From a virus (lineage: Duplodnaviria; Caudoviricetes): 56,241 nt of DNA. The notes below the pieces were generated by a model. That model was not told the origin of the DNA, did no database searches, and saw only the letters and a list, made by a program, of their open reading frames with translations. The translations under genes were made by a program, and so were the position numbers. Below, piece by piece: positions 21,642-55,370 of the stretch (position 1 is its first letter; the number at the start of each line of letters is the position of its first letter). The DNA lies in the IMG/VR virus record IMGVR_UViG_3300005764_001667, positions 1 to 56,241 of that record, one strand, 5' to 3'.

Positions 21642-22547
21642 ATCCAGCACCTTGGGCAGTAGGGCCATGCGGGTATAAACTCCGTTCTTTACCTGACGCC
21701 AGATTGCGCAACGCGGGTCGGCCTCCAGCCACTCCGGTATCTCGTTGTTACGCGGGAGCGGGTGCAATATAATTGCATTCCTTTTCATGTGGTGAAGAAT
21801 ATTGCTATCCACCGGCCACTGCCAGCACTTCTTTTCAAATTCTTCCTGGGCCTCCACCGGCCAGCGTTCCTTCTGTGGCCGAATCAAATAAAACACGTCG
21901 ATCTCGTGGGCTACCTCCAGCCGGTTTACGTTTTCGTGCATTATATTGTTGCCGCTCCATTTGAAATTTTCCTCCAACTCCAACCCCTTCGGGTGCGCGA
22001 GGTACGCGGTCACATCAAATTGCTGGAGGAGGTTGAGCAGCGAGTGGGCGGTGCGGCTGTGCTTGAGATCGCCCAGGAACATGACGTTCAGCCCATCCAC
22101 GGTGCCCAACTCGTTTTGGATGGTGAAAAGGTCGAGGAGGGCTTGTGTCGGGTGTTCGCCGTCGCCGTTGCCCGCGTTTATGATGGGACAATCACTGACG
22201 GTGGCTGCCTGATCCATCGCCGTGCGGTCGGCGTGCCGAATCACGATCACGTCGGCGTACTGGCTGACCGTCTTCACGTTGTCCTCCAGGGACTCGCCCT
22301 TCCGCAAGGACGTGGTGTCGGCCTCCGTGACGCTGAGGACGGAGCCGCCCAACCGTTTCATGGCCGTCTCGAAGGAAAGGCGCGTGCGGGTGGATGGCTC
22401 GAAGAACATGGTCGCCAGGATGTGATCGCGGAGGATTTGTACTTCCTGCCACATTCCGGTTTCTGCCAGGTGTTTCATGCTGCCGGCAGACGCCAGCACG
22501 TCAAGAACAAAAAAGCGGTCCAAGCCGCGCGTAGAAAGGACGTGCAT
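21615..22547 (-). CDS. pyrB: aspartate carbamoyltransferase catalytic subunit
   Basis: FFEPSTRTRLSF, INAG.G..EHPTQ, GDLKHSRT, HPLPR. Confidence 0.96.
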   Translation of the reverse strand: MHVLSTRGLDRFFVLDVLASAGSMKHLAETGMWQEVQILRDHILATMFFEPSTRTRLSFETAMKRLGGSVLSVTEADTTSLRKGESLEDNVKTVSQYADVIVIRHADRTAMDQAATVSDCPIINAGNGDGEHPTQALLDLFTIQNELGTVDGLNVMFLGDLKHSRTAHSLLNLLQQFDVTAYLAHPKGLELEENFKWSGNNIMHENVNRLEVAHEIDVFYLIRPQKERWPVEAQEEFEKKCWQWPVDSNILHHMKRNAIILHPLPRNNEIPEWLEADPRCAIWRQVKNGVYTRMALLPKVLDLWIARGGE

Positions 22548-24355: not shown

Positions 24356-25183
24356 ATGGGACTGCCACCTTTATTTTCGCAGCGTATGCTGATGTGCTGG
24401 CCCAGGCACTATCAAGTTTGCTATAAGATCAACCCCTGGATGAAGCCCGACGAGCCGGACCAGGCGGTTAAAAGGTCGCTCGCCGTCAAGCAGTGGATCA
24501 ATCTTCATCATACCCTCATTCGCCTTGGCGTCTTTGTGGAATACATCGACGCCACCCCCGCTATACCCGATCACGTCTTTACCGCCAACGCCGGATTGAT
24601 TTATGGCGAAAAGGTGGTATTATCCAATTTCAAATACAAGGAGCGGCAGAAGGAACGCCGTAAATACCATCGCTGGTTCGAGGACCATTGCCTTGAAGTC
24701 AAGACCCTTCCCGCCAAGCTTCACTTCGAGGGGGCTGGTGACGCACTGTTTGTTGGTGATACCTTATACGGTGGTTTTGGTTTTCGCTCTGATTATCTCG
24801 CTCATATTCAGGTCGCTGATACGCTGGGAATCAAGAAGTTCCATCTTCTCAAGCTTGTCGATCCTCGTTTTTATCATCTGGATACCTGTTTTTGTCCTCT
24901 GCGGAGCAATACGGCTCTTGTATTCCCGGACGCCTTCGACCCCGAATCCCTGGCTGTGATGGACTCGCACCTGAACATGGTGCCGGTCCCGCCCCAGGAG
25001 GCCGAAAGATTTGCTTGCAACGCCGTCGTCCTCAACAACGACATCGTGATTCCGAAAGGCTGTCCGTTGACGCGGGAGCGACTGATCGGGGAGAACTTTC
25101 GCGTATATGAAGTCGAGATGGGGGAGTTCATCAAGGCCGGCGGTGCCTGCAAGTGTTTGACCCTGAATTTAGGTGTAATATGA
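24356..25183 (+). CDS. amidinotransferase/dimethylargininase family protein
   Basis: INPWM, PD.VFTANAG, FEGAGD, FYHLDTCF, FIKAGGACKCL. Confidence 0.9.
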   Translation: MGLPPLFSQRMLMCWPRHYQVCYKINPWMKPDEPDQAVKRSLAVKQWINLHHTLIRLGVFVEYIDATPAIPDHVFTANAGLIYGEKVVLSNFKYKERQKERRKYHRWFEDHCLEVKTLPAKLHFEGAGDALFVGDTLYGGFGFRSDYLAHIQVADTLGIKKFHLLKLVDPRFYHLDTCFCPLRSNTALVFPDAFDPESLAVMDSHLNMVPVPPQEAERFACNAVVLNNDIVIPKGCPLTRERLIGENFRVYEVEMGEFIKAGGACKCLTLNLGVI

Positions 25184-26121
25184 AACAGATTAGCATGGAC
25201 TTGGTTCGCGTCACGGAGGCGGCGGCGATTTCCGCGTCGGCCTGGGTTGGGAGCGGCAATAAGGAGGAGGCGGATCGGGCGGCGACAGACGCGATGCGGG
25301 ACCGTCTGAACCAGCTTCCCATGCACGGTGTCATTCGTATTGGCGAGGGCAAGAAGGACGGGGCACCGGGATTGTTTCGCGGCGAAATCGTCGGGGGTCT
25401 GCGCGACATGGCGGTAGACCTTCATGTTCCTTCGCTCGATATTGCGGTGGACCCCATCGACGGCACCCGGCAGACCACCATCGCCGGCCCGGAAGCCATC
25501 AGCGTACTGGCGGTCGCGGACCACAACACCATGTTCCATACCGACGATTTCTACATGCTGAAATTGGCCTACGGCCCGGAGATCGCCACCCGGACCACCC
25601 TGAACGTGGACGCCCCGCTCAAAGACACCCTGGGGCGGGTTGCCAAGGCCATTTATAAACAGATCGAGAAGTTGACCGTCTGCATTTTAGACCGTCCGCG
25701 TCACGCGGAATATATTGATGAAATGCGGCGCTGTGGTTGCCGCATCAAACTCATTCAGGACTGCGATATTTCCGGGGCCATCGCCACCTGCCTGCCCGAT
25801 AGCGGCGTGGACCTGCTGTTCGGCATCGGCGGTGCCCCGGAGGCGGTTATCACGGCCTGCGCCATGAAATGCTTGGGCGGCAACATGGACTGCCTTATTT
25901 GGGACCAGAAAAGCGGCGAACAAACGGGCTATGCTCGCGGCCAGCCCTATACCCTAAAGCATTTGGTGGACGGCAATTGCTGCTTTGCGGCCACCGGCGT
26001 GACCAACGGCAGCTTGCTCAAGGGGGTACGCTGGACGCAGCACGGCCCGATCACCAACAGCGTCTTCATGCGGTCGGAGAGCGGCACAGTGCGTTGGCTA
26101 ATCACGGAGCATGGGAACTAA
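25180..26121 (+). CDS. glpX: fructose-1,6-bisphosphatase class II
   Basis: RVTEAAA, IGEG, DIAVDPIDGT, LDRPRH, GIGGAPE, AATGVT.G. Confidence 0.95.
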   Translation: MKQISMDLVRVTEAAAISASAWVGSGNKEEADRAATDAMRDRLNQLPMHGVIRIGEGKKDGAPGLFRGEIVGGLRDMAVDLHVPSLDIAVDPIDGTRQTTIAGPEAISVLAVADHNTMFHTDDFYMLKLAYGPEIATRTTLNVDAPLKDTLGRVAKAIYKQIEKLTVCILDRPRHAEYIDEMRRCGCRIKLIQDCDISGAIATCLPDSGVDLLFGIGGAPEAVITACAMKCLGGNMDCLIWDQKSGEQTGYARGQPYTLKHLVDGNCCFAATGVTNGSLLKGVRWTQHGPITNSVFMRSESGTVRWLITEHGN

Positions 26122-27617: not shown

Positions 27618-28158
27618 CCCGGAATTGTTGAATATGACCAAAACACCCGACGCCTTATACCAGGAGCAGCGCCGCCTGGCTCTGTCGAAGGCCAAGGAAG
27701 TCCTCCAGGGTTTGATGGTTAAGCTCCAGATGAAGTACGACGGCAAGCCCTTCAAGTGGGTTTTCCCGGACAACGTGTATTCCTATACCGACGCGGTGAA
27801 GGAACTGGTGGTCGAGGCGATGCAGGCGCAGGGCTGGAGGATGAAGAAGGATCGAGGCCGCAGCTATACCATCACCAAGGGTTCCGCGATCCAGCCGGGC
27901 GAAGCCTGGTACGGGACGCTCAAGATCGCCGGGGAGGGCACGCAGGGTTTATTGGTGGTGAAGACCAACCCAGAGATGGAGACAGGTTACGACATCCTTA
28001 ACAGCCACCTTGAGGGTTCCCTCAAGGAAGGAGACGACGTTCATTTGCTGGACGAGGACGATGGGTGGAGTTGGATAGGTCGCCTGCACGAAAACGGCGT
28101 GCCCGTGGAAATCCAGGCGTTGGAATTGCTCAAGTTGCATCACGAGGGCGGTAAGTGA
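27598..28158 (+). CDS. hypothetical protein
   Basis: ORF in operon. Confidence 0.6.
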   Translation: MMTQKLDPELLNMTKTPDALYQEQRRLALSKAKEVLQGLMVKLQMKYDGKPFKWVFPDNVYSYTDAVKELVVEAMQAQGWRMKKDRGRSYTITKGSAIQPGEAWYGTLKIAGEGTQGLLVVKTNPEMETGYDILNSHLEGSLKEGDDVHLLDEDDGWSWIGRLHENGVPVEIQALELLKLHHEGGK

Positions 28159-28712
28159 ACGACTTCTTCTTGGAGTGGCATCTGGACGCGGAAAACAACC
28201 CATTCGTTCTCTACGTCATGCGGGGCGTTCCGGGGTCCGGGAAAAGCCATGAGGCCAAGAAACTTGCGCCGCCGGAGCAGATTTTTTCTGCCGACGACTT
28301 CTTCGGCACTACCCGCGAGGAATATATCGCCGCCTGGAAGCAGGACAAACTTGGCGCTGCGCACAGCCAGTGTCAGCAGAAGGTGCGCATGGCGATGCAG
28401 TGCCGCCTGATGCCGCTCGTGGTGGATAACACCAACACCTTGCGGTGCGACGTTTTCCCCTACCTGGAAATGGCCCTGCGTTACGGCTACCGGCCTGAGA
28501 TAAAGGAGCCGACCTCGGAATGGTGGTTGACCCTGGTGGTTCCTTACCTGGGGAAGTTCGGGGCTTATCCTGACGAATTGGATGTGGCGGTCAAGGCGCT
28601 TTTCGACAAGTGCCAGCACGGTGTCCCCGAATCGACAATTCGTAAGATGTTGGTCAGGTGGCAGACCGTCTCTGCCGCCGACATGATGAAGTCCATCCTG
28701 CGGAGCAAATGA
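28155..28712 (+). CDS. P-loop kinase, AAA_33/N4BP2-like (polynucleotide kinase-like)
   Basis: MRGVPGSGKS, SADDFF, AH..CQ, VVDNTN, HGVP...I.KM. Confidence 0.8.
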   Translation: MNDFFLEWHLDAENNPFVLYVMRGVPGSGKSHEAKKLAPPEQIFSADDFFGTTREEYIAAWKQDKLGAAHSQCQQKVRMAMQCRLMPLVVDNTNTLRCDVFPYLEMALRYGYRPEIKEPTSEWWLTLVVPYLGKFGAYPDELDVAVKALFDKCQHGVPESTIRKMLVRWQTVSAADMMKSILRSK

Positions 28713-33717: not shown

Positions 33718-33969
33718 ATGCCAAAACTTGGCTTTTGGTGGTGGGTCAGGGCGTATTTCAAAGTCTGTTTCAGCCGTGAAATGTGGCTGAACTGGCTTTT
33801 CGTCATCTTCTACGTTCTGATGCTGGCCACCCACCTGGAACGCGGCTCTTTCGACCCCTGGTTGCTAGTCAAACAAGGGCTTCTTTTGGTTGTCATGGCT
33901 CTGGTGTTCGGGGCGATGGGTGTCATCGGGGCGATGATAAAACTGCGAGATCAAAATGGACCATCGTGA
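33718..33969 (+). CDS. small membrane protein
   Basis: Two hydrophobic segments, TGATG coupling. Confidence 0.55.
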   Translation: MPKLGFWWWVRAYFKVCFSREMWLNWLFVIFYVLMLATHLERGSFDPWLLVKQGLLLVVMALVFGAMGVIGAMIKLRDQNGPS

Positions 33970-35158
33970 AATCGGGCGGCGGTTGGACCTGTTCATGCAG
34001 CACGAGCTTGCGCCGGGCTGCCCAATCTGGCTGCCCAACGGCACCTTGATTTACAACCTGTTGGCGGACAGAATCCGCAAGTTCAACGCCCAGCACGGCT
34101 ACCACGAGGTCCGCACGCCGGTCCTGTGGAACCACGAGCTTTATAAACTGTCCGGGCATTGGGACCACTACCAGGACTTCATGTATGGCGTCCACGGGCG
34201 GGAGGAGGACAAACTCTATAACCTCAAGCCCATGAACTGCCCTGGGCACATGCTGATCTTCAAAAGCAAGCAGTGGTCGTACCAGGACTTGCCCTACCGT
34301 CTCCATGACCAGGGGATATTGCACCGCGATGAAACCTCCGGGGCCGTAGGGGGTCTGACCCGGTGCCGGGCCTTCTGCCAGGACGACGGCCATGTGTTCC
34401 TGCGACCCGACCAGATCGCTCAGGAAGTCGAGGACATGATAAAGATGGTGGAAACCATCTACGTCGAGCGCTTTGCCATGCACGACTTCCGCATGGCTCT
34501 GTCTACCCGCCCCGAAGACTTCATGGGCGATCCCGGCGAGTGGGACCACGCCGAGGCCCAGCTTCGGCTGGCCATCAATCGCCCCGGTGCGAAGTTCACC
34601 ATCGAGGGAGGCGGTGGCGCGTTCTACGGACCCAAAATCGACTTCTTCGTTAAGGACAGCCAGAACAAGGAGTGGCAGACCGCCACCATCCAGCTTGACT
34701 TCCAGTTGCCGCAGCGATTCCAGTTGGAATACACGGACGAGGAGGGCGTGCGTCGGACGCCCGTGGTCATCCACCGGGCCTATTACGGCAGTTTCGAGCG
34801 CTTTATCGCCATTCTGCTGGAACATTACCAGGGCAACCTGCCGTTGTGGTTGTCCCCGGTCCAGGCAGTCTTCTTGCCGATCAGCGAGAAGCAGAACGGC
34901 TACTGCGGCACCCTCAACGCGGAGTTCAAGGCGCGGGGTCTGCGTACCGAGGTCGATACGTCCAACACTCGCATCAACGCCAAGATCGTCCACGCCAGCG
35001 AGCGGATGGTGCCGTTTATGCTGGTGGTGGGTGACCGGGAAGTGCAGAGCAGCCGCGTTAACGTGCGCCACTTCCACGACAAGGCCGAGGAGGGGGAGAA
35101 GCCCTGGCAACGAGTCATGGAGCATTTAAGCAAACTGGACCGGGAGTCCTTCTACTAA
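33956..35158 (+). CDS. thrS: threonyl-tRNA synthetase lacking N1/N2 (editing) domains
   Basis: Starts at DHREIG; SGHW.HY, KPMNCPGH, HR.E.SG..GLTR.R.F.QDD.H, AFYGPKID, TIQLDF, IHRA..GS.ERF, anticodon-binding domain. Confidence 0.96.
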   Translation: MDHREIGRRLDLFMQHELAPGCPIWLPNGTLIYNLLADRIRKFNAQHGYHEVRTPVLWNHELYKLSGHWDHYQDFMYGVHGREEDKLYNLKPMNCPGHMLIFKSKQWSYQDLPYRLHDQGILHRDETSGAVGGLTRCRAFCQDDGHVFLRPDQIAQEVEDMIKMVETIYVERFAMHDFRMALSTRPEDFMGDPGEWDHAEAQLRLAINRPGAKFTIEGGGGAFYGPKIDFFVKDSQNKEWQTATIQLDFQLPQRFQLEYTDEEGVRRTPVVIHRAYYGSFERFIAILLEHYQGNLPLWLSPVQAVFLPISEKQNGYCGTLNAEFKARGLRTEVDTSNTRINAKIVHASERMVPFMLVVGDREVQSSRVNVRHFHDKAEEGEKPWQRVMEHLSKLDRESFY

Positions 35159-38925: not shown

Positions 38926-39162
38926 TCATTGGCGGGGTATGTAACCCAACATCCTGCGTAATTTCTCGTCTACAAAATCTCGTGGGGTTTTACCGGCGCG
39001 GTGATTGGGCACCAAAAACTCGTCGCGGTTGGTTCGCCGCATCCTTCGTAGCCGCCGCAATGCGTAATACCAGTCCGCTTGGGGGTCACCCGGAATCCCC
39101 CTCCTTAGACGGCTCAGGTAGCGGTAGTAAGCCGCTACCTGGATTTGCTCCTGAGTTATCAA
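38926..39162 (-). CDS. DUF2934-like protein
   Basis: EQI..AAYY.Y..R...G....DW..A. Confidence 0.6.
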   Translation of the reverse strand: MITQEQIQVAAYYRYLSRLRRGIPGDPQADWYYALRRLRRMRRTNRDEFLVPNHRAGKTPRDFVDEKLRRMLGYIPRQ

Positions 39163-39234
39163 CCCCCACTCGCTGGCGGTCTGGAGGCTGGCTTTTCATC
39201 AGATTTAGCTGGTTGGACATGCACCGGCTGCTGG

Positions 39235-39591
39235 CTAGGGGTCAGCACCGGGAGATAACGGGGTATCGGGCCGCTTTTGCCCTTCCGCCTTGGTTGCCTC
39301 CTTTTGCCTCCGCAACATGCCATGTTTACCTCCTTTGAGTACGCGACTCGGATAGTTTATATAGCCGTCCATGCCTTCATCTTCCTTTTTCTTCTCGTCG
39401 TATTCATAAAACGACGAGTAGTCGTCGGTGATTACCACCTGCAAGTCGTGGTGGTGAATCAAGTAGTCCTTGTACTGCGAGCGGTCGGCTTCGTTGTAAA
39501 CCCGGAAGAACAGTTCCCCGTTCACGCCGCGTAGCAAGTAGCCCTTGACGTTGTGGGCCGAGGTTTCATTGGCTTGGAAGGTTCGTTCCAT
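39235..39591 (-). CDS. hypothetical protein
   Basis: ORF downstream of valS. Confidence 0.6.
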   Translation of the reverse strand: MERTFQANETSAHNVKGYLLRGVNGELFFRVYNEADRSQYKDYLIHHHDLQVVITDDYSSFYEYDEKKKEDEGMDGYINYPSRVLKGGKHGMLRRQKEATKAEGQKRPDTPLSPGADP

Positions 39592-40957
39592 GTTGCACCT
39601 TGGGTTTGAGTTTGATGAGGGTGCCTGGCATGAACACCCCCATGTATTCGCGCATGTCGTCGTAGATGGCCCGTAATGTGCCGTTCATGGGCTGGCGCTT
39701 GGATTCTTCAATCCGAATGGCGCAGAAACGGTGCCAGAAGTATTCAAAGAACAACTCGCCGGCCTCCGGCCAGTCATAGTCCTCGAAGGCGGCATTGATG
39801 CCCGCTTTGCGGTCCAGCCACTCCTTCCAGACTGCCTCGTTGGTGGTCTGGTCCGCGTGCATTTCCAAGAAACGCTCCGCGTTGCGCCACTTGGTAACAC
39901 ACCGTTTCCCGTATTCCATGCACACAGGGTTGATGCGGGTGTCGGAGCCGATGGTGGACTGTGCGGCCCAATAGCGAACGCCATCGGACGTGTGCTGGTC
40001 GAAGTATTCATTCGGCGGCTTGTAGTTTCCCTCCGTCTTGGAGATTTTCTTCCCTTTGGGGTCCAGGGCGTGACCACTGATGACGATGGTGCGCCAGGGA
40101 ATCTGATCGTTGTGGAGGACGCTTTTAATGATGGTGAATAGCGCCCAGGTGCGGATGATGTCGTGGGCCTGGAACCGAACGTCAAATATCGGACACTTGA
40201 GCGTGTTCTGGTATTTCCCTTCCTCATGCCAGGCTAGTTGCGGTGATAAACTGGACGTGTGCCAGGTGTCGAAGACGATGCCGGGCGGTTCTCCGGGGAT
40301 GGGGATGCCGTAGTTTCGCTCGCGGCTGATCGACCAGTCCTGGTTGCACTGGTCCAGCCAGGCCAGCAGGCGGTCTTTATATTTCTGCGGCTTCCAAACG
40401 ATCTGGTTGATGGCGGCGCGGATGCGTGGCAGGTTGTCGAGGACTTTTATGAACCAGCCCTCGCCCCGCCGGATTTCGACCTTTTCGCCGCTTCGCTCGT
40501 ACCGCCCGTCCTCGGTCAGTTCGTTTTGGGAGACGGAAACCTTGGTGACCGGGCAGAAGAAATAGTCCCGCTCGGCTTTGTACGCCTGGCCCTTGGCCAC
40601 CAAGTCGTGGAACGAGAGTTCGGCCAGGCGGACGGCGAAGGGGCTGAAAGTGCTATAGTGATGCCACGAGTAGGCCATCGCCAGGCGCATGAACAGGATG
40701 TGGTAGGCGAGGGCTTCGCCGTGGGAGAACCCGATGATTTGGTCTTGCTGCATAATGCCCGCAGCGTGGGCCAGTTTCTCCGTTGGGAGGCCGTTGTTGT
40801 CGTAACAGTACGGGTAGACGAGGTATTCGTCTTTTATGTGTCTGTGGTATCGGGCAATGAAGTCCATCTGGGCGTAGCTGAAAACATGGCCCATGTGGAG
40901 GGTGCCGCTAACGGTAGGCGGCGGAACGTCGATGAGGAATTTTCTGTCCTTGTTCAT
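39566..40957 (-). CDS. valS: minimal valyl-tRNA synthetase (463 aa; CP1 editing, CP2 and coiled-coil absent)
   Basis: ID.PPPTVSG.LHMGH, DNNGLPTE, DWSISR, FDTW..SS, QAHDIIRTW, KISKT. Confidence 0.92.
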   Translation of the reverse strand: MNKDRKFLIDVPPPTVSGTLHMGHVFSYAQMDFIARYHRHIKDEYLVYPYCYDNNGLPTEKLAHAAGIMQQDQIIGFSHGEALAYHILFMRLAMAYSWHHYSTFSPFAVRLAELSFHDLVAKGQAYKAERDYFFCPVTKVSVSQNELTEDGRYERSGEKVEIRRGEGWFIKVLDNLPRIRAAINQIVWKPQKYKDRLLAWLDQCNQDWSISRERNYGIPIPGEPPGIVFDTWHTSSLSPQLAWHEEGKYQNTLKCPIFDVRFQAHDIIRTWALFTIIKSVLHNDQIPWRTIVISGHALDPKGKKISKTEGNYKPPNEYFDQHTSDGVRYWAAQSTIGSDTRINPVCMEYGKRCVTKWRNAERFLEMHADQTTNEAVWKEWLDRKAGINAAFEDYDWPEAGELFFEYFWHRFCAIRIEESKRQPMNGTLRAIYDDMREYMGVFMPGTLIKLKPKVQHGTNLPSQ

Positions 40958-41063
40958 GGCGCAGTTGTCGGTTAGGGTGCGTGAAACGGCTGGGGTTGCG
41001 ATCCCACAAGGACTCGCAACCCTGACGCACGCCGACAACAAACCTGACTGCAACAAGGTGCAT
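40908..41063 (-). promoter_or_regulatory. Val-rich leader peptide/attenuator of valS
   Basis: TATAAT(41070-41075)-N6-ATG; MHLVAVRFVVGVR... has 5 Val in the first 12 codons, the last three lying in a long hairpin that ends a few nt before the valS ATG. Confidence 0.65.
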
Positions 41064-41106
41064 GGAGGTATTATACTCCCCCGGCCCAGAAAACGCTACC
41101 GAAAAT

Positions 41107-41202
41107 TAGCCGAGGCGGGACTCGAACCCGCAAGCCCTAACGGGCAGAGGATTTTAAGTTGCCTGGCTTAATCCTCAGCGTATACCTTTCCGCCACTCGG
41201 CC
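41107..41202 (-). tRNA. tRNA-Leu (UAA-like) with 13-nt insertion in anticodon loop
   Basis: Acceptor GGCCGAG/CTCGGCT+A73, D arm, stem GAGGA/TCCTC closing a 20-nt loop, long variable arm, GGTTCGAGTCC; no encoded CCA. Confidence 0.85.
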
Positions 41203-41888
41203 TAAACCTGCCAGTCCGCGTCCAGGCTGCGGTAGATCGGCTTCTTTTTGGGCCTTGGGGCACCGACGCCCGTGTGCTGCTGGATGACCTTCTGCACGGT
41301 GGCTTGGTCCTCCAGTCGGACCATACCACTCAGATCGTGCAGGGAGGCGATCCAGAAATCCCACTCGTGCCGGCTGCCAGCAACGGAAGGCTGGAGGAAC
41401 CGGGAATCGTCGTAGCTGGGGTACATCATGCCGCCGCCGGCCTGTTGCATTTTACGAACCACCAGCAGGTCGCGTCCAGTTTTATACGCCGTCACGTCGC
41501 CCAGCGCGGGGCTGTCGATGTCGCCCGCGACGGCCCGCATAACAACGGTGTGCAACATCTTGCCCATCGAAAAGACCATCGGCCCCTGGTTCTTGGAGAA
41601 AATGCCGCCCCGGTGGATGACGTTGTAAAAGTAGCGCTCTATCGGTTTGACCTCGCGGGCTTCTTGCACCTGATGTGGCCAAAGCGACTGGTAGAGGGCG
41701 CAGTAGTCGCACTGCCCTTGCCACCTGCCGTTCACCAGGATGCGGTGGCAGGTGTGGTTGGTCTGGCAGAGCCGATGCTGGCAGAAGCCGTGGAAAAGGC
41801 CCTTGCCCTTCCCAGGGGGCAGGATACGCAGCGTCACGGGGTCCGTCCCGGTCGGCAACGTGAAGAAGATGTTGCTGAGGTTTCCCAT
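41202..41888 (-). CDS. second gp32-like SSB paralog
   Basis: LRILP, CDYC, KPIERYFYNV, GP..FS.GK, GRDL, YPSYDDSRF; collinear with the gene at 1-647. Confidence 0.8.
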   Translation of the reverse strand: MGNLSNIFFTLPTGTDPVTLRILPPGKGKGLFHGFCQHRLCQTNHTCHRILVNGRWQGQCDYCALYQSLWPHQVQEAREVKPIERYFYNVIHRGGIFSKNQGPMVFSMGKMLHTVVMRAVAGDIDSPALGDVTAYKTGRDLLVVRKMQQAGGGMMYPSYDDSRFLQPSVAGSRHEWDFWIASLHDLSGMVRLEDQATVQKVIQQHTGVGAPRPKKKPIYRSLDADWQV

Positions 41889-42009
41889 ACGGGCCGATCT
41901 TATCCTGTTTTTTTCGCCGTGTAAAGCCTTGAAACTTTCATCCTTGACAGTACAATCAGACTGGAGGAAGTGCGCGACGAAACTAGACGGAAGTTCACCT
42001 ATATACGGC

Positions 42010-42723
42010 ATGGGTGAATTCGCAAACTTCTTCCGGCTACAGGAGATGGCTGCCCGGCGGTCCTTCACGCGGACGATGGGCAAGTACGAGCCGGAAGACA
42101 TCGAGAAGCCGGTAGCTACCCTGACCGCCTGGCGGGCGGAACTGAAGAACCCCGCCGGCCAACTCTACCCCGAAGAAGTGCGGCGGCGACGGAACGACGC
42201 TGCCAACGAGAAATTAAAACGCAATATTGAAAAACGCGGACTGTCGCATTACCCGGTGGTCGGTGCCGGCCAGGAGATGAAGAAGGGCGTGCTGACGGTG
42301 AACAAGGAAAACAGCTTTATAATCCAGCCGATTGGCACGATGTCGAACGACGAATTCATGCAGCATGTCCGCGAACTGTTATGGAACCCGACCGAGGAGG
42401 AAGGGCGCGGCCCGTTCCCGCATACGCAGTGGGGTGCCAGCATCAAGCTCCCCGGCAGGAAGCAGTCGTTCCTGAGTTACCATCCTGGTGACGTTCCGAC
42501 CGGCCCTGAAAGTTACACCGAGAAGGATGACATTGGTGCGAGGGCAGAACCCAGACGGGGGCAGGAGCGATATTACACTCAGATGAAATATGGGCCACGA
42601 GCCGAGCCGGCGATGATGGACCCATTGGACCAGCCCAGCGACGTAGGCAACCCGCCGCCGGGCAAAAGGGGTGAGGGGTTGCCTGGTCAACGTTTCACGA
42701 TCAAAGACAGAGAAGTGCCATGA
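42010..42723 (+). CDS. hypothetical (DUF3293-like) protein
   Basis: LTAWR...N..AN..L...GL...V.G...E.SF; upstream TATATA. Confidence 0.55.
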   Translation: MGEFANFFRLQEMAARRSFTRTMGKYEPEDIEKPVATLTAWRAELKNPAGQLYPEEVRRRRNDAANEKLKRNIEKRGLSHYPVVGAGQEMKKGVLTVNKENSFIIQPIGTMSNDEFMQHVRELLWNPTEEEGRGPFPHTQWGASIKLPGRKQSFLSYHPGDVPTGPESYTEKDDIGARAEPRRGQERYYTQMKYGPRAEPAMMDPLDQPSDVGNPPPGKRGEGLPGQRFTIKDREVP

Positions 42724-42983
42724 AGCAAGTTTGCATGAACTGTGGGTGGGAAGAAGAAGGCAGCCAGCATAAGGTCTGCCCTTCCTGCCAGAGCTTCGTT
42801 TATAACCACCACGATGTTCCGGTCTGCAAGGTCTGCGGCGACAAGACGGTGGCCACGTCTGGTTCGGGCCAGGGTGCGACCTGGGAATGCAAGAAAGGCC
42901 ACTACCAGGAGGGCCTGTCCCAATCTGGGCGGTGGTGCTACATGAACGGGGAGTACCAAGTTCTCGAAAGCTGGCAGAGCTAA
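42720..42983 (+). CDS. Zn-ribbon protein
   Basis: Three CxxC plus CxxGH. Confidence 0.55.
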   Translation: MKQVCMNCGWEEEGSQHKVCPSCQSFVYNHHDVPVCKVCGDKTVATSGSGQGATWECKKGHYQEGLSQSGRWCYMNGEYQVLESWQS

Positions 42984-43705
42984 TTGGCCTGGGGGTCGGG
43001 CTGTTCTTCCTCGTCCTCGTCATCAAGGCCGAGGTCTTCCCAGGGCACGCACTTCAATTCGCCGGTTTTTATCTTCTCGGTGGTGTCCTTCATTTCTTCG
43101 AGGAAGGCGGCGTTGTCCGCCGGCCCACCCATGAAGGAAATATCATCGTAGATGGCGTCGAGGATGTCGAGCAGCGAGAAGTCGCGCTCGCCCACGAACA
43201 GCAGCTTGGGTGGCCCCGTGTGGGGACGGTAAATCTCGACCGTGGTGTTCAGCTTCACCGGCAGGTGCGCCAGTTCCCACATTGGAGAATAAGAAACGCT
43301 GTAGCAAGTGAAGCCGTGGTCATCGGCCCTGCCGATGCCGTGGAAGTCTGGGTTCAGGTCGATGCTGTTCTTGCCCTTGTAGTGGTGGGTGCTGGCGTGC
43401 CAGTGGATTTCCAGGTAGTCGAGCGGTGCCTCCTGGTCGGGCAGCTTGAAGATAGACTTGCGGGCGTCCTCGTGGAAGTCGTCAATGTGGCCGCACCAGG
43501 AATACTGCGAAATGAACTCCTTGAGTTCAGGGAAGCCTTCGACGGCCTCGAAGATGTCCCGGAGCGTCACGCCTTCCTCGATCTCGCAGGAGCAGCGCAG
43601 GAGGGTCCAGACGTACTTGGGCTTGCGTTTTTTATATTCGCGGGCGTCTCTGTCCCACTTGTAGGACCAGATGCCGTCCTTTTCGATTTTGGCATGTTCT
43701 GACAT
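42980..43705 (-). CDS. hypothetical protein
   Basis: 241-aa ORF, acidic tail. Confidence 0.7.
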   Translation of the reverse strand: MSEHAKIEKDGIWSYKWDRDAREYKKRKPKYVWTLLRCSCEIEEGVTLRDIFEAVEGFPELKEFISQYSWCGHIDDFHEDARKSIFKLPDQEAPLDYLEIHWHASTHHYKGKNSIDLNPDFHGIGRADDHGFTCYSVSYSPMWELAHLPVKLNTTVEIYRPHTGPPKLLFVGERDFSLLDILDAIYDDISFMGGPADNAAFLEEMKDTTEKIKTGELKCVPWEDLGLDDEDEEEQPDPQAN

Positions 43706-46671: not shown

Positions 46672-46699
46672 TCCGTAAAGGAGTATGCCAAGTTGAAAA

Positions 46700-46784
46700 T
46701 GCCCCCGCCAGGACTCGAACCCGGACACCCGTTACAGGTACTTGGGCCTAAGCCAAGCGCGTCTACCTTTTCCGCCACGGGGGC
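46700..46784 (-). tRNA. tRNA-Leu(UAG)
   Basis: GCCCCCG/CGGGGGC+A73, loop CT-TAG-GC, long variable arm, GGTTCGAGTCC; no encoded CCA. Confidence 0.95.
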
Positions 46785-46788
46785 AATG

Positions 46789-49220: not shown

Positions 49221-50553
49221 GCAAGTACACCACGACTTTCTGTAGCTCGCACAGGGCGTCCCGCAACTCGTTGGCGCTGCACCGTACTTTAGCGCCGGAC
49301 CTGCCCAGGGGGCACCAGTCGGTGTCGGCACAGGAACAGTGGCCGGGCAGTGCGATATTCTGCCCCTTATTTTGCGGGCTAAAACGTTTGTAGGGCTGTT
49401 CCTCAAAGCTCTCCAGTTCCCGGAGGAATTCCTTGTCCGTCATCCTTACCCTCCTTGGTCTTTTTCATCGCTGGCAAACCGGGAATGGCACCGGGTTTGA
49501 CGTGATGGCAAACCTCCGGCGGCGGGTCGGCGGGCGTCAGGCCGCAACTCGGCATGTGTTTCACTTCGCCGCAGCCAAACCAGACACGATACCACCCTGG
49601 CCAGTCCCCTTTCCCCACCACCAATCCCAGGGCGTCCCGATTCCACACCCAGGACAGAATGTCAAAATCGGGGTACTCCGGCTCTTGGAGGACGATCTTG
49701 CGGCGCTTGCCTTTCTCATCGAACATGCTCGGCCCGGCGTGCCCAGAGAATTTCAGGTCTGCGAAATAAGAACCGACCTCCTGCTCATTGCGCACCCGCA
49801 TGAAGGTTCGCAGGGCTGCTTCAAGGTCCGGCGTTTGATTCATGACCTTGCCGTTATAAACCACTTCCCAACCCTTCGTGTGGCCCGGCCCGCCGTAGCC
49901 GATCTCCCGCAGTTCCAGGGTGGAGTCGTGGTCCAGGCAGCCCTTTTCCGCAAAGGCCGGGCCGACGATGCGGATAACGAAGTCGCGCTGGCTGGCGAGC
50001 AGAGTCAGGATCGCCACTTCCAACCTTTCCTCGTCGCCCGTGGACCAGTAGTAGCGGCGGATTTCCTGGTCACCCTGTTTATAGACCACCAGTTCTCCGG
50101 CCCGCCAGGGGTGACGGACGGTTTCGTGGGTGGCGCGAAGCGGCTCTCCTTGCGGTTTCATTGGCATTCCTCCGGCCATTCGATGACGTTGGTGGTCGCT
50201 TCCTTCAGTGTAGCGTAGTCGATGATCCCGTGGTAGCTGAAATGCGGCTCTCCGGCTGCCTTGCAAAACGCCCGCAGGGTTTCATCCGACTCCATCATCT
50301 GGAGAACCATGTCAAGCTTCATGCCGCTTTGGTACATCCGCTCGTAATACTCGACCTCCTCCGGCGGGTCGTCGCGCAACTGCTCTCCGAAGATTACCTC
50401 CTCGCCCAACATCACCCGCAGGTAACCCCAACGATACCGTGCGTAGACCTCCTGGCCGTCCGCCGTCTTGCCCACCCAGGAAGACGGGCAGCCGAAGCAG
50501 GTCTGTTCGACCGTCACCACGGTTACTTTGCTGACTTCTCGGTATTCCTTCAT
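49213..50553 (-). CDS. three hypothetical ORFs (49213-49443, 49403-50161, 50158-50553)
   Basis: Coupled co-oriented ORFs. Confidence 0.55.
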
Positions 50554-50554
50554 C

Positions 50555-51094
50555 CTACCACTCAATATACTGCGCCGGAACGTGATCTGTTAACCAGACT
50601 CCGTTCTCGGACTGGTAGAATTTGTAGCCGGCGTCGTGCATGTCGCCGGCACGCACACGCAGAATCACGGGTCTTCCGCGCCGCAGGGCGACCTTGCGGG
50701 CCGTTTCCTGGTCCGGGGACAGGTGAACGTGATGCCGCCGCATCTTGTGCAGCCCTTTTTCCCTTATGGTGGGGGCAAACCGATCCACGGTGCCGTGAAA
50801 CAGATGGTTGGGAGGTCGTTTTTCAACAAGCTGGAGATCAACCGGAGTGGAGTGACCCTGGTTGGCGCGGATGAGGGTTTGCGTCTCGTCCAGCGAGAAG
50901 CGTTTCTTGTCGTTGTTATCCACGCATTCTTTTATTTCCTCCGGCGTGACCGGGAATCCTTGTTGACGAGCGCCCTCGATGACGCTGGCCAGAGAAACCC
51001 AGCCGCCGGGCATCAACGTCAGGCCCAGGGCCTCCGGCTCGTGCCGCAGGTACTTGGCGAGGAACTTGCTCACGCGAATATGTCGGGGTGTCAT
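50555..51094 (-). CDS. kptA: RNA 2'-phosphotransferase (Tpt1/KptA)
   Basis: SKFL...LRH, K.RF, IRANQGHS, FHGT, RHHVHLS, SENGVWL. Confidence 0.95.
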   Translation of the reverse strand: MTPRHIRVSKFLAKYLRHEPEALGLTLMPGGWVSLASVIEGARQQGFPVTPEEIKECVDNNDKKRFSLDETQTLIRANQGHSTPVDLQLVEKRPPNHLFHGTVDRFAPTIREKGLHKMRRHHVHLSPDQETARKVALRRGRPVILRVRAGDMHDAGYKFYQSENGVWLTDHVPAQYIEW

Positions 51095-51663
51095 GATGAA
51101 TACTGCTTTACGGCGATTCGGGAATAGCGGAGAACGTCGTCCAGGGTTCCGTAGCGCGGCCACGGGATGGTGGTGATGAAGTCGGGGTCTTCTTTTGAGT
51201 TAGCCTCCCACGTTTTCCAGTCCGGGCCGTTGGCATCACTAACCCGGTCGTCATTGACATACGCATGTGCCTTCAGGTAACCGCCGTGCAGGCTGGCGCT
51301 CTGGGTCCAAATGCTGCTCCAGAACGAGGAGATGACCGCCTTGAAGAAACTTTCCTCCTCCGGGTAGCCGTTTTTCACGCTCTCCATGCAAATACGCAAG
51401 TCCTGGTTATAGACGTTCCACAAGTTCGGGTAGAAAAGGCATTGGTCCCGTTGACGCAGGGATTCGTTGCGGAACGCCAGGTGCAAGGTGATGTGGTGGT
51501 GCCTGGTATATGCAATAATAAATACCAGCCAAGGAAAGGCCAGGAAGTGGGTATAGTGTTTAGCAGCGCGATCATGCTCCGATACGCGGACGGAGATTAC
51601 TCGACAACACGGCGGCGTTTCGAGGACCGCGATCCCGTCCTCAGCATAGCGAAGCCTCAACAT
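51091..51663 (-). CDS. possible prokaryotic E2 family D-like protein
   Basis: FP.LVF...L.NVY...IC...FW.S pattern. Confidence 0.4.
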   Translation of the reverse strand: MLRLRYAEDGIAVLETPPCCRVISVRVSEHDRAAKHYTHFLAFPWLVFIIAYTRHHHITLHLAFRNESLRQRDQCLFYPNLWNVYNQDLRICMESVKNGYPEEESFFKAVISSFWSSIWTQSASLHGGYLKAHAYVNDDRVSDANGPDWKTWEANSKEDPDFITTIPWPRYGTLDDVLRYSRIAVKQYSS

Positions 51664-51678
51664 ACATCGCGGCTCCTT

Positions 51679-52011
51679 TTATTTGCAGCACCATGCGATG
51701 AGGCACGCGACCCCAAGCACGCAGAGGCCGATAGCGACCCAATACCACCAGGCCGATCCGTGACGGGCGCGTGGCACCCACATCGTTATGTGCGGCTTGT
51801 GGTGCTGGGCGGCGTCCTGGCGTGTGAGCTTATCGAGGAACAGGTGGCAGTTGCCGCAGTAGTGCTGTTGAATATCGTCCCGGTTGTAGCTGGTCATGCC
51901 GCACAGGTGGCAGGTTATGCCGCCGTCGCGGACGGTGTAATTTTTACCCTGGTGTTCTTTCTTGGCCTGCTCCAAGTGCTGTTGGATAAGCCGGCGATTA
52001 CTTTGAGTCAT
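51679..52011 (-). CDS. Zn-finger membrane-anchored protein
   Basis: CHLCG..S....D....YCGNCH; C-terminal TM. Confidence 0.55.
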   Translation of the reverse strand: MTQSNRRLIQQHLEQAKKEHQGKNYTVRDGGITCHLCGMTSYNRDDIQQHYCGNCHLFLDKLTRQDAAQHHKPHITMWVPRARHGSAWWYWVAIGLCVLGVACLIAWCCK

Positions 52012-53179
52012 AATGCACCCGCTCCCCGAAAATGTGCGGCACGAAGCGGCTCATGTTCTGGGTGATCCGGCCCCCGTCCTCGCGGACGCCCATGCCGCAA
52101 GCCCAGCCGTTGACGATCCAGCTTCCGATCACCGGGAAGTGGCCGTCGAAATTTGGAAGTTCCCAAAGTTCTTGGTATATTGCAGGGCCGTCGTATGGCC
52201 CCTCCGTCTCCTCCACCTTCTCGCCATGCTCGAAGATGGCGATGTTGGCACCCTCCCGTGACAAGATCGGTTTCTTCACATAATCCTTGATGTCGTGGAT
52301 TTCCAGGTCCACCGGGTCGAAGTAGCACGCCAGCAAGTAAGTGTTGTTCGGATACAACTCCCACAACGTCGGCAGTAGTGCCTTGTTGCTTAACAGGGAC
52401 TTCCAGGGCGGCTCCCACCACTTGGTCCGGGCCTGGCGCAGATACGGGCCAAACTGCTCGCGCATCAGCCATTCCCAGGGGTAGAGTTTGAAGATTTGTT
52501 TGATCTCCCGCTCTTGCAAGTCGGTGAAGATGCCGCTCGCCTGGTTCCAGCCCACGTCGTCTATGTCCAGGTACTCCACCCCCGCCAACGGCCCGAAGCC
52601 CGCCTGCACGGCCACGTCCTTGAGGTAGTTGACGGTCATGTAGTCTTCGACGCTGCCCTTGAGCGCTGCGAAATAAAAACGCTCATCCCCGACCTGTTCG
52701 CGGATGACTTTGAAGACTTCGAGGAGGCGGTCGTGGATGCTGTTGAACTGGTCGCCGCCCGGATGCACGTCTTTCAACCAGAACCACTGGATCACCGAGG
52801 CTTCGAGCAGGGACGTTGGCGTGTCGGCGTTGTACTCAAAAAGCATCGGGTCGTGGCCGGGCTGGAAGCAGAAGTCGAAGCGACCGTAGATGGTGTGGTC
52901 ATCTTCTTCCCAGGAGCGCACGATGTAGTCGTCGTAACCGGGCGGGATTTGGAAGCGGTCGAAAAGATCGTGGTCGATGATGTGCTGCACCGCCGCCAGG
53001 CACATCTCGTTGAGGGCGTAAGTGGCCTTCTCGATCTGGTCCACTTCTGCGCGGCTGAATTCGTAGTAGGCAGACTCGTTCCAGTAGGGCGCACCGTCCT
53101 CGCTGGTGTGGAAATAGAGTCCCTGGCCTTCCACTATTTTCTGCCAGTTCTCACGAGGTTCCACCGTGAGCCTTCGCAT
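51998..53179 (-). CDS. glutathionylspermidine synthase family ATP-grasp ligase (YgiC/YjfC-like)
   Basis: YW.E.AYY, YGRFD, EYNADTPTSLLEA, FKLYPWEW, EPPWK..LSNK, KP..SREGAN, RED. Confidence 0.93.
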   Translation of the reverse strand: MRRLTVEPRENWQKIVEGQGLYFHTSEDGAPYWNESAYYEFSRAEVDQIEKATYALNEMCLAAVQHIIDHDLFDRFQIPPGYDDYIVRSWEEDDHTIYGRFDFCFQPGHDPMLFEYNADTPTSLLEASVIQWFWLKDVHPGGDQFNSIHDRLLEVFKVIREQVGDERFYFAALKGSVEDYMTVNYLKDVAVQAGFGPLAGVEYLDIDDVGWNQASGIFTDLQEREIKQIFKLYPWEWLMREQFGPYLRQARTKWWEPPWKSLLSNKALLPTLWELYPNNTYLLACYFDPVDLEIHDIKDYVKKPILSREGANIAIFEHGEKVEETEGPYDGPAIYQELWELPNFDGHFPVIGSWIVNGWACGMGVREDGGRITQNMSRFVPHIFGERVHYDSK

Positions 53180-54086: not shown

Positions 54087-55370
54087 TTATACCGGGTGGT
54101 CCAAAGGTTGTAAAGCCAAACCAGGGGCGAAGCAGTGGAGCATCGGGAGCAGCGCCGCCACCGTCGCGGGGGAAGGCTTTTTCTCCCGATTCTTGTTGTA
54201 AAACCCCATCAGGGTGGAGACGACCTTGTTGACCTTCCAGCTTTGTAAGTAGTGGTGGACCTGGGCGTGGAGATCGGTCAGGTCGATGTCGTTTTCACCG
54301 GGCTGGGACAGCCAGCGCCGCAGCCGGCCCAGGAACCGGCGAATACCCGTGATGGCTTTGTCGTCCCAATCACCCCCTTCCTGATACGGTCCCAGGAACA
54401 TTAGATAAAGGCGCAGTTCGTCGGGGTCGTAATCGTCGGGGTTGACGGCGTTGCCTTTGCTTTTTCCCATCTTGGCACCGCCCGCCGTTATCATGCCCTG
54501 GTGGACGACGTGTTTGAAGGGTTCCTCCTGCGTGACGATGCCCAAGTCGTAGAGGAACATATTGATAAAGCGGGCGTAGATCAGGTGCATACACGCATGT
54601 TCCGGCCCGCCAACGTACAGGTCCACCGGCTGATAGTTGTGGGCGTGCAGGAAAACCTCCGGGTCATTTTCCAGGTAGCGGAGGAAATAAAAGCTGGAAT
54701 CCACGAACGTGTCCAGCGTGTCCGTGTCGCCCTCGATGGGGATGGGGCAACCCCACTTGCGTTGGCGGGACACGCACCAGTCACGCAGGCCCTCCAGCCA
54801 GACCCTCTGCTGCTTGCGGGTGCCTTCGGGGTAGTCGATCCGGTCCAGGTTGTCGATGAGCCGGTCCTTGTAGGCGGTGATTTTGAAATACCACTGGTTG
54901 AGTTGGCGGACCTCCGGCTTGGCGCTACAACGATTGCAGTAGCCACCGCTCACCTGCTCGTTCGCCAGCACGGTGTCGCAGGAGGGGCAGTAGTTGACCG
55001 GGCCGAAGGCTTTGTACGCCAGCCCCTTGTTCTTCAGCAGGGTGAAGAGCCACTGCGTCCATTTGTAGTAGGAAGGGTCACAAGTCACCAGCTTTTCTTC
55101 GTACTGCGTGTTCATGCGGGCCATCTGCGCCCGGAACCGTTCGATGTTGCCCCAGGTGACGGTCTTGGGGTCGCCGCCGATGGAGCGGGCGTAGTTCTCC
55201 GCAGGCAGGCCGAAGGCGTCGTAGCCGAAGGGCTGGAAGACTTCGGTGCCGAGGTAACGCAGCCACCGGCAGTAGGAGTCCACGATTGCGTAGTTGTAGC
55301 AGTGCCCCAGGTGCAGGCCCGCGCCGGACGGGTAGGGAAACATCACGCAGCAATAGAATGGTTTACTCAT
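54087..55370 (-). CDS. leuS: minimal leucyl-tRNA synthetase (427 aa; CP1, CP2, Leu-specific and C-terminal domains absent)
   Basis: MFPYPSGAGLHLGH, DAFGLPAEN, YYKWTQW.F, TVLANEQV, LRDW..SRQR.WG.PIP, DTFVDSS, YVGG.EHA..HL.YARF, KMGKSKGN. Confidence 0.95.
   Translation of the reverse strand: MSKPFYCCVMFPYPSGAGLHLGHCYNYAIVDSYCRWLRYLGTEVFQPFGYDAFGLPAENYARSIGGDPKTVTWGNIERFRAQMARMNTQYEEKLVTCDPSYYKWTQWLFTLLKNKGLAYKAFGPVNYCPSCDTVLANEQVSGGYCNRCSAKPEVRQLNQWYFKITAYKDRLIDNLDRIDYPEGTRKQQRVWLEGLRDWCVSRQRKWGCPIPIEGDTDTLDTFVDSSFYFLRYLENDPEVFLHAHNYQPVDLYVGGPEHACMHLIYARFINMFLYDLGIVTQEEPFKHVVHQGMITAGGAKMGKSKGNAVNPDDYDPDELRLYLMFLGPYQEGGDWDDKAITGIRRFLGRLRRWLSQPGENDIDLTDLHAQVHHYLQSWKVNKVVSTLMGFYNKNREKKPSPATVAALLPMLHCFAPGLALQPLDHPV

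Follow-up and report, generated by a model that had tools for sequence, protein, structure and literature searches.

A tRNA-Leu(UAA) gene with a short insert paired to its anticodon loop in a lineage of huge phages

How could a leucine tRNA read its codon when its anticodon is paired to an additional segment lodged in its own anticodon arm? This question is raised by a gene in the IMG/VR virus record IMGVR_UViG_3300005764_001667, a 56,241-nucleotide stretch of DNA that comes from a huge phage and that is called the window here, over its full length. The gene occupies positions 41202..41107 on the minus strand and specifies a class-II tRNA of 96 nucleotides (nt), or of 83 nt once the insert is removed. 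Its anticodon stem GAGGA/TCCTC encloses 20 nt, TTAAGCCAGGCAACTTAAAA, where 7 nt are usual; this feature, pointed out in a preliminary description of the stretch, is reproduced exactly from the sequence. The insert is best regarded, tentatively and at somewhat less than an even chance, as a mini-intron that is processed by proteins within a functional tRNA-Leu(UAA) gene. The parts of the gene are as follows.

41107..41202, minus strand: complete class-II tRNA-Leu gene, with G1 at 41202 and A73 at 41107 (ARAGORN intron mode, cloverleaf fold and syntenic homologues)
41172..41176, minus strand: 5′ strand of the anticodon stem, GAGGA, nt 27-31 (sequence and fold)
41159..41171, minus strand: 13-nt insert TTAAGCCAGGCAA between nt 31 and 32 (ARAGORN intron mode and fold)
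41152..41158, minus strand: anticodon loop CTTAAAA, C32 to A38, the canonical 7-nt Leu(UAA) loop, with the anticodon TAA at 41154-41156
41147..41151, minus strand: 3′ strand of the anticodon stem, TCCTC, nt 39-43 (sequence and fold)

The oversized gene and its fold

The gene has the cloverleaf and the A73 of a bacterial-type tRNA-Leu and lacks a free 7-nt loop that presents U34 A35 A36. Its acceptor stem of 7 base pairs (bp; GGCCGAG/CTCGGCT) includes G1.U72, the D stem has 3 bp, the variable arm is long with 4 bp, and the T arm is GCGGG/CCCGC. The discriminator A73 is a Leu identity element that is also found at the matching position in three related loci (L001, L069 and L071), and CCA is not encoded. 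ARAGORN in its default, bacterial mode misses the gene, its sole call in the window being Leu(tag) at 46699-46785. In intron mode, a check that had been proposed beforehand, it reports a tRNA-Leu(taa) of 83 nt that is split by an intron of 13 nt, and its coordinates, 41107..41202, are just those at which the oversized gene had been described. The window copy stays under the gathering score of the Rfam tRNA model RF00005; the copy in the related contig G001, introduced below, reaches 50.6 bits and passes the cut-off. The sole Rfam clan match of the window tRNA is tRNA-Sec (24.3 bits, E 0.013), and an Rfam scan of this tRNA at E up to 10 finds no intron or ribozyme family.

An assembly error is ruled out, because contigs of three runs of soil DNA (X3, X5 and X6, from three samples and studies) carry the insert unchanged. 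These contigs cover the tRNA and its insert with 0 differences and no joints that skip it. In a further run, X7, coverage is limited to 2 of 30 bins.

Folded to minimum free energy, the molecule forms a cloverleaf with a lengthened anticodon arm, in which the insert is paired to the anticodon loop. TTAAG, at nt 1-5 of the insert, is matched to loop nt 36-32; the other eight insert bases make up a hairpin tip, and A37 A38 are bulged. The pairing of TTAAG with CTTAA that had been proposed to hide the anticodon is thus borne out by the fold. The enclosed loop measures 20 nt in the window and 17 nt in the sister clade, and 5 of the canonical 7 nt are paired to the insert. The z-score of the window fold is -2.46, with 7 of 200 shuffles as stable or more; those of three relatives range from -3.0 to -4.2, and all four sequences give the same cloverleaf. 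The folding energy of the anticodon arm is -7.4 to -10.3 kcal/mol, the masking helix consisting of 5 A/U-rich pairs.

In a chance control with random inserts of equal length (3000 trials per setting), complete masking of nt 32-36 arises in 0.6-1.9% of trials, and masking of four or more of these five bases in 8-16%. Because random inserts often mask partly, masking in a single sequence is weak evidence. Judged on the homologues, the evidential weight lies in the pairing segment, which is kept in all four distinct sequences while the hairpin tip has diverged.

Conservation of the insert and identity of the anticodon

Relatives were found through the ValRS-like protein that is encoded directly downstream of the tRNA. 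Used as a query, it identifies one IMG/VR contig, G001, of 343 kb and at 76% identity. The Pfam profile of G001 is that of a T4-like myovirus (Gp23, portal, sheath), and IMG/VR tags this contig as 'provirus'. The CheckV completeness is ~11% for the window, which is the whole 56-kb record, and ~69% for G001. A metagenome scan with an alignment of both ValRS-like proteins gives 8 loci, 5 of which are close relatives at 68-90% identity. L069 and L071 have the same oversized tRNA directly upstream of the ValRS-like gene, L070 equals G001 there, and L072 and L073 have the ValRS-like gene without a tRNA at that place; in the 3 distant loci, at 30-31% identity, no tRNA is seen. The homologues comprise four distinct sequences in two clades.

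Window: 5′ stem GAGGA, insert TTAAGCCAGGCAA, loop CTTAAAA, 3′ stem TCCTC
L069: 5′ stem GAGGA, insert differing by one G-to-A in the hairpin tip, loop CTTAAAA, 3′ stem TCCTC
L001: 5′ stem CGGGA, insert TTTAAGTCGG, loop CTTAAAA, 3′ stem TCCCG
L071: 5′ stem CGGGA, insert ATTAAGTCGG, loop CTTAAAA, 3′ stem TCCCG

The insert is 13 nt long in the first clade (window and L069) and 10 nt in the second (L001 and L071). TTAAG and CTTAAAA, including the unpaired A37 A38, are invariant in all four, and TTAAG pairs with nt 32-36 in each. The hairpin tip has diverged, being CCAGGCAA or CCAAGCAA (an 8-nt loop) in one clade and a TCGG tetraloop in the other. Conservation in related phages, a further check proposed at the outset, therefore holds for both the position and the pairing of the insert in L069, L001 and L071. 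Elsewhere in the molecule, pairs have changed on both sides between the clades at 2-71, 5-68 and 6-67 of the acceptor stem, at 11-24 of the D stem, at 27-43 and 28-42 of the anticodon stem and over the entire variable arm, with 0 pairs broken; among the masking pairs, 0 of 5 have changed. These compensatory changes were read from the sequences and folds, since MAFFT misaligned the insert and the variable arm. They indicate that the tRNA body is under selection and so add to the earlier observation that the remaining arms are intact.

Within the collections scanned, the insert-bearing gene is confined to this phage lineage. A blastn search of 39000-43000 against a phage GenBank collection gives no match. 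A masked-arm pattern finds 52 stretches in viral contigs, of which only that of G001 is an insert-bearing tRNA. A second pattern finds 20 viral and 34 genome stretches, and by ARAGORN these 54 comprise G001, 4 ordinary tRNA-Leu genes and 49 stretches without a complete tRNA. A third pattern, run on IMG/VR, fixed the D arm, the GGA/TCC of the anticodon stem and the T arm and left the loop free in content at a length of 7-24 nt; it matches 23 viral stretches, 22 with a 7-nt loop and one, in G001, with 17 nt.

Many of the pattern matches are tRNA-Leu(UAA) 3′ halves at sites in other viral contigs that resemble phage attachment (att) sites. In L048 (9480-9545, minus strand), L027, L034, L056 and L068, a copy of the stem and TTAAG precede such a 3′ half. 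These contigs share the inverted repeat of the insert, TTAAG-spacer-CTTAAAATCC; the L048 copy adjoins a divergent open reading frame (ORF), and ARAGORN finds no complete tRNA in L048, L027 or L056. The insert could have arisen by recombination at att-like sites of this kind.

The 22 insert-free tRNA genes also define the site of the insert. In 22 of 22 insert-free phage tRNA-Leu(UAA) genes, the loop that directly follows the stem is CTTAAAA. Because these bodies have CTTAAAA after nt 31, the insert is placed at 31/32 and the anticodon is UAA. By this comparison the gene has the body of a standard tRNA-Leu(UAA), enlarged by additional bases between nt 31 and 32. The preliminary description had left two registers, giving UAA or AAG. 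Read in the 3′ register, all 4 homologues give CTTAAAA with the anticodon UAA; read in the 5′ register, two homologues (one clade) give AAG and the other two (the other clade) give UAA. UAA thus stands, and AAG is ruled out as inconsistent between clades and contrary to all 22 normal homologues. The remark that four Leu triplets occur in the loop is correct, yet it has no evidential weight. Default ARAGORN calls tRNA-Trp(cca) on L069; this call takes the hairpin tip as the anticodon loop, where the sister clade has TCGG, and is rejected. Low-stringency tRNA calls in the window have the same fault.

The long-arm Leu tRNAs of G001 have the anticodons UAG, CAA, GAG and CAG, in addition to the insert-bearing gene, and no intact Leu(UAA) gene was found in G001. 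From this set of genes, UAA is the missing fifth Leu isoacceptor of G001 and the only one able to read UUA. On crude ORF calls, UUA makes up ~4 per 1000 codons and 4.4% of Leu codons; it is present in 30 of 48 ORFs of the window and in 164 of 253 of G001 (ORFs of at least 150 amino acids). The same phage also has an ordinary Leu tRNA in the window.

46699..46785, minus strand: ordinary tRNA-Leu(UAG) (ARAGORN; Rfam 52.7 bits)

Processing of the precursor and competing explanations

If the insert is a mini-intron, the tRNA-Leu(UAA) would be transcribed as a precursor with 13 nt (10 nt in the sister clade) intervening between nt 31 and 32. The TTAAG of the insert, paired to nt 32-36, would lock the anticodon inside a 10-bp arm, and removal of the insert by proteins would be needed before UUA could be read. 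For removal, a single strand would have to be cut at two places: behind nt 31 and 13 nt further on, at the junction of tip and helix before C32. The ends would then be healed and sealed by phage enzymes, namely a kinase, possibly a 2H esterase and an ATP-dependent RNA ligase, and Tpt1 would act if the junction bears a 2′-phosphate. Because the loop is preserved, the isoacceptor gap is filled and all arms are selected, a decoding role after removal of the insert is favoured. The transcription, cutting, joining, acting enzymes and decoding are inferred; the intron reading gains indirect support because the canonical loop is kept, the missing isoacceptor is supplied, and ligases, a kinase and Tpt1 are encoded in the lineage. 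The candidate enzymes in the window are the following.

50558..51163, minus strand: RNA 2′-phosphotransferase Tpt1/KptA (169 bits, Pfam 1.2e-49; NCBIfam 247.7 bits, above the cut-off)
28155..28709, plus strand: P-loop kinase, AAA_33 (Pfam 2.7e-09; PHROG ATPase 2.2e-25, and polynucleotide kinase 5.9e-07, a weak match)
54090..55370, minus strand: LeuRS-like catalytic core of 427 amino acids without an editing domain (NCBIfam leuS_bact 394.5 bits, cut-off 548)

The presence of Tpt1 and of a polynucleotide kinase-like protein in the window, as first described, is thus supported, on a strong match for the former and on AAA_33 with a weak PHROG match for the latter. Both have syntenic copies in G001, that of Tpt1 at 108852-109349. 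Tpt1 is a candidate for the last step of a heal-and-seal ligation, its tie to the tRNA being putative, and the AAA_33 protein is a candidate RNA 5′-kinase. G001 has two PF09414 RNA ligases (PHROG 'RNA ligase'), of which the 56-kb window has none, and one 2H phosphoesterase; the lineage also has two CCA-adding-type nucleotidyltransferases. The LeuRS-like core could possibly charge the Leu tRNAs of the phage. The search for an RNA ligase and an endonuclease that had been suggested is successful in its first part, with the two ligases of G001, and fails in its second, no endonuclease being recognised in these incomplete records. The neighbours of Tpt1 (49406-50266, 51094-51663 and others) have no Pfam match at E up to 1, and 49406-50266 has no match among PDB sequences.

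Several points weigh against a protein-processed mini-intron. We know of no protein-dependent tRNA splicing in bacteria or phages. The splicing endonuclease PF01974 is found in neither of the two records (window and G001), both incomplete, and RtcB is absent from the same records (~11% and ~69% complete). No endoribonuclease family is seen among the Pfam matches of 118 window ORFs and 285 of 309 G001 ORFs, where G001 matches were taken at E<=1e-6, most ORFs have no family, and 15 ORFs straddling piece boundaries and 9 very long ones lie outside the scan. Clipping of the hairpin by an RNase III-type enzyme is rejected on geometry, the 3′ strand of the helix being the anticodon loop that must stay. 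The anticodon arm contains one 2-nt bulge, or a 1x2 internal loop, and no bulge-helix-bulge. The 2H phosphoesterase of G001 also matches the anti-CBASS Acb1 family, and the repair genes lie 9 kb to >90 kb from the tRNA. Conservation is seen across only four distinct sequences in two clades, and the 7 sequencing runs found to contain the stretch are all of soil DNA, with no RNA run among them. In jumbo-phage reviews, phage RNA-repair genes are explained as a defence against host anticodon nucleases (PMC7824862).

A more specific form of the mini-intron, which we consider improbable, is that of a true intron with a phage-encoded, protein-only cut-heal-seal pathway that ends with Tpt1, in which removal of the mask serves as a timer on UUA decoding. 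Translation of late genes would be held until the phage RNA-processing enzymes are made. The codon count gives a weak hint in this direction from small, hand-picked sets: UUA is present in 7 of 7 structural genes of G001 examined (17 in 3731 codons), and 12 early or RNA-processing genes of G001 have 12 UUA in 5560 codons. Within the hand-picked set, UUA is absent from Tpt1, both ligases, PolA, DnaB, ThrRS and the ValRS-like gene of G001. The Streptomyces bldA gene encodes a developmentally regulated tRNA-Leu(UAA), which alone reads UUA, a codon that is rare against a GC-rich background. By analogy, and here from a weak codon count, control of one tRNA might gate UUA-containing genes in the phage; unlike the phage gene, bldA has no insert and is regulated by transcription and processing. 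If this form of the reading is true, it would be the first non-self-splicing tRNA splicing in the bacterial and phage world and would give phage or bacterial Tpt1 a natural 2′-phosphate substrate.

The closest published case is that of the 'enigmatic introns' in tRNA genes of the Lak megaphages, a prediction made with tRNAscan in its eukaryotic settings (Devoto et al. 2019, PMC6784885; 10.1101/356790). The Lak introns are kept between cohorts and unclassified by Rfam (PMC6784885). Both systems combine a phage genome of several hundred kb with tRNA genes that bacterial tRNA finders miss and that have extra sequence in the anticodon region. In both, the insert is unclassifiable with Rfam, is conserved among relatives and has no established mechanism of removal. 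An oversized tRNA gene, a huge phage and an unclassifiable, conserved insert, the features of this loosely defined class, are all found here. The Lak phages differ in being gut phages of Prevotella with 26% GC, whereas the present lineage is a T4-like soil phage with 56-58% GC. One Lak insert is long enough to include a predicted tRNA; the insert here has 10-13 nt, lies at 31/32 and is paired to the anticodon. Beyond the Lak reports, whose Supplementary Table 6 may list short ones, no 10-13-nt or protein-spliced tRNA insert of bacteria or phages was found in the literature.

The insert also resembles the introns of archaeal and eukaryal pre-tRNAs, which are cut by EndA or TSEN, in being short, in pairing with the anticodon loop and in extending the stem (reviewed in PMC4090602). 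Self-splicing would be impossible in either case, and an endonuclease and a ligase would be needed. The two differ in site, which is 31/32, 5′ of the anticodon, in the phage gene and 37/38 in these pre-tRNAs. They also differ in that the phage arm has no two 3-nt bulges around a 4-bp helix, that neither record has PF01974, and that the host here is presumably bacterial. By inspection, the folds have a 2-nt bulge (window and L069) or a 1-nt bulge or 1x2 internal loop (L001 and L071), with a terminal loop, so the earlier statement that there is no clean bulge-helix-bulge is correct.

The catalytic core of a group I intron (P3-P9) usually takes more than 150 nt. An insert of 10-13 nt, at 31/32 and without an Rfam intron match, is too short for such an intron, as had been noted. 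The group I intron found in tRNA-Leu(UAA) of bacteria and cyanobacteria is a self-splicing ribozyme between U34 and A35, and it shares with the present gene the isoacceptor and the mature loop, CUUAAAA (10.1101/2020.01.27.920355). The T4 Pnkp/Rnl1 repair system (PMC7824862) and the fungal and plant Trl1-Tpt1 pathway rejoin tRNA halves that are broken in the anticodon loop, and enzymes of the types that they employ are encoded in the lineage: Tpt1, ATP-dependent RNA ligases, a candidate kinase and a putative 2H esterase. Unlike the Trl1-Tpt1 pathway, the repair enzymes of the lineage include no Trl1-like fused ligase and, in the ORFs scanned, no recognised endonuclease; none of their genes adjoins the tRNA, and their tie to this tRNA is putative.

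The strongest competitor, which we judge unlikely although it deserves weight, is an unspliced, non-decoding tRNA look-alike. Such a molecule would be processed by RNase P, end in CCA and probably be charged with Leu, with its anticodon deliberately locked. It could divert a host anticodon nuclease or a tRNA-sensing defence by acting as a decoy or sponge, it could regulate a synthetase, or it could donate leucine outside the ribosome. Bacterial LeuRS does not read the anticodon. Pairing with the anticodon is the one conserved property of the insert, whose tip varies freely, and no cutting enzyme was found in the scanned ORFs; a look-alike would explain the conserved masking with no need for a nuclease. 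The phage's own LeuRS-like and ValRS-like cores without editing domains, and the further odd tRNA-like genes in G001, also agree with a look-alike. However, a structural helix need not freeze the exact Leu(UAA) loop and the unpaired A37 A38 in both clades; the other stems have covaried, yet none of the five masking pairs has changed, and the isoacceptor that the gene supplies is precisely the missing one. Neither a target nuclease nor a partner in defence was identified, and the families that would use a leucine donor (L/F-transferase PF03588, CDPS PF16715 and FemAB PF02388) are absent from both incomplete records, so that the donor function proposed at the outset gains no support.

It would be surprising if the insert were a tolerated scar in a dispensable gene, left by an accident of duplication or recombination that disabled a redundant tRNA-Leu(UAA) whose function the host supplies. 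The scar might persist because it is short or because the tRNA acts as an RNase P processing signal that ends the upstream mRNA. Such a scar would fit the rarity of UUA (4.4% of Leu codons), the occurrence of TTAAG-spacer-CTTAAAATCC at att-like tRNA 3′ halves (L048, L027, L034, L056 and L068), the pairing of at least 4 of 5 loop bases by random inserts in 8-16% of trials, and the ValRS-like relatives L072 and L073 that have no tRNA here. On the other hand, the gene has survived to ~76% amino-acid identity in its neighbour, with compensatory changes in all stems that vary and no broken pair. The insert has been remodelled (13 or 10 nt, with new tips) but has kept its 5-bp pairing and the loop, whereas a neutral scar should decay.

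Direct decoding of UUA, in which the insert loops out or melts on the ribosome and the 3′ seven bases act as the anticodon loop, is very improbable. It would make use of the canonical loop and the A31-U39 closing pair, which are intact, and of a masking helix of only 5 A/U-rich pairs; in the sister clade, however, this helix is capped by a stable TCGG tetraloop. We know of no loop longer than 8-9 nt that functions in the A site, and with an insert 5′ of nt 32, nt 32 can no longer stack on 31 and its interaction with 38 is lost.

That the gene is an att site, or a junction that arose by integration into a host tRNA-Leu gene, is hardly credible: G001 is labelled 'provirus' in IMG/VR and similar tRNA-Leu(UAA) 3′ halves are common at att-like sites (49 of 54 pattern matches without a complete tRNA), but the tRNA here is whole, including its 5′ half, shows clade-specific compensatory changes and sits in the middle of a conserved block of replication and translation genes, and no integrase family is found among the Pfam matches of the window or of 285 of 309 G001 ORFs.

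Genome context and significance

The tRNA lies between an ORF upstream and the ValRS-like gene downstream.

41202..42101, minus strand: ORF of 299 amino acids upstream of the tRNA, with a weak PHROG match to single-strand DNA-binding protein (1.8e-06)
39566..41056, minus strand: ValRS-like class I synthetase without an editing domain, directly downstream of the tRNA (Pfam, NCBIfam)

The final base of the stop codon of the 299-amino-acid ORF is G1 of the tRNA, and the same arrangement is seen in relatives, including L069 and L071; because of this overlap, the tRNA is probably co-transcribed with the ORF. The stop codon occupies 41202-41204 on the minus strand, and a cut by RNase P would strip the upstream mRNA of its complete stop.

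Translation of the ValRS-like gene probably begins at 40957, with an ATG that is conserved. Upstream of it lies a conserved TATAAT at 41070-41075, and between the two a conserved leader hairpin of ~90 nt (window 40957-41075, minus strand; L001:5990-6110, L069 and L071). In this hairpin, 8 of 43 predicted pairs have changed on both sides and are kept, and no Rfam match was obtained for it; the synthetase gene may be autoregulated through this leader. A sigma-70 scan did not call the TATAAT at 41070-41075, which lacks a -35 element. The tRNA itself is unlikely to be the leader of the ValRS-like gene, since the conserved TATAAT and a separate leader hairpin lie between them.

The window has four synthetase genes in 56 kb, all syntenic in G001: MetRS (7616-9391, minus), a ThrRS core without its N-terminal part (33956-35155, plus), the ValRS-like protein of 496 amino acids (39566-41056, minus) and the LeuRS-like protein of 427 amino acids (54090-55370, minus). 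The last two score below the NCBIfam cut-offs. DnaB, PolA and a RecD-like helicase are also encoded in the window, together with metabolic enzymes.

Further unusual tRNA genes are found in G001. At 126651-127072 (L087:6652-7072, minus strand) lie four tandem tRNAs of ~75 nt with short variable arms; ARAGORN assigns the anticodons CAA, UAG and CAG (Leu) to three of them, and the fourth is an Rfam tRNA match only. The combination of type-I bodies with Leu anticodons suggests charging by an enzyme other than LeuRS, or mimicry. An unusual tRNA-like cluster at 127800-130000 (L087) contains three Phe(GAA) and Ser (GGA, GCT and CGA-like) genes, several matches below cut-off to tRNA-Sec only, and a 93-nt stretch matching the ends of the tmRNA model. 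A full tmRNA with the tag AENDLRLAA is found at 12849-13200.

Other genes of the two records are listed for completeness. A free-standing GIY-YIG/NUMOD3 homing endonuclease (window 4834-5361, minus strand) lies between a dCMP deaminase gene (4266-4841) and a DUF5843-like gene (5371-5883); in G001 the latter two abut with nothing between them (L084:6584-7198 and 7198-7869), and the GIY-YIG/NUMOD3 gene looks like a mobile endonuclease insertion. In G001, the T4-type portal gene is interrupted by an intein (L093:16366-18945), an NAMPT-type gene of NAD salvage adjoins a NUDIX gene (L090:7312-8700), a microbial PARG lies near one RNA ligase (L097:11700-12419), and a CmoB-like methyltransferase (Methyltransf_9; L089:2024-2695) could modify U34 of tRNA. 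Host-like metabolic genes of the window, at 21618-22547 (minus), 24356-26118 (plus) and 52001-53179 (minus), comprise aspartate/ornithine carbamoyltransferase, a DDAH-like amidinotransferase, GlpX fructose-1,6-bisphosphatase and glutathionylspermidine synthase.

Bacteria and their phages are not known to remove tRNA introns otherwise than by self-splicing ribozymes. An insert of 10-13 nt cannot be a ribozyme and yet is selected; it follows that the phages of this lineage either cut and rejoin a tRNA with proteins or keep charged look-alikes with hidden anticodons. The gene is a compact test case for this choice, with a tiny insert, a site fixed by 22 insert-free homologues, natural variants of 13 and 10 nt, and few candidate enzymes. 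The outcome bears on the nature of the 'enigmatic' inserts in the tRNAs of huge phages, on the role of Tpt1/KptA outside fungi and plants, and on the means by which huge phages, equipped with synthetases and tRNA sets of their own, take control of translation or set its timing.

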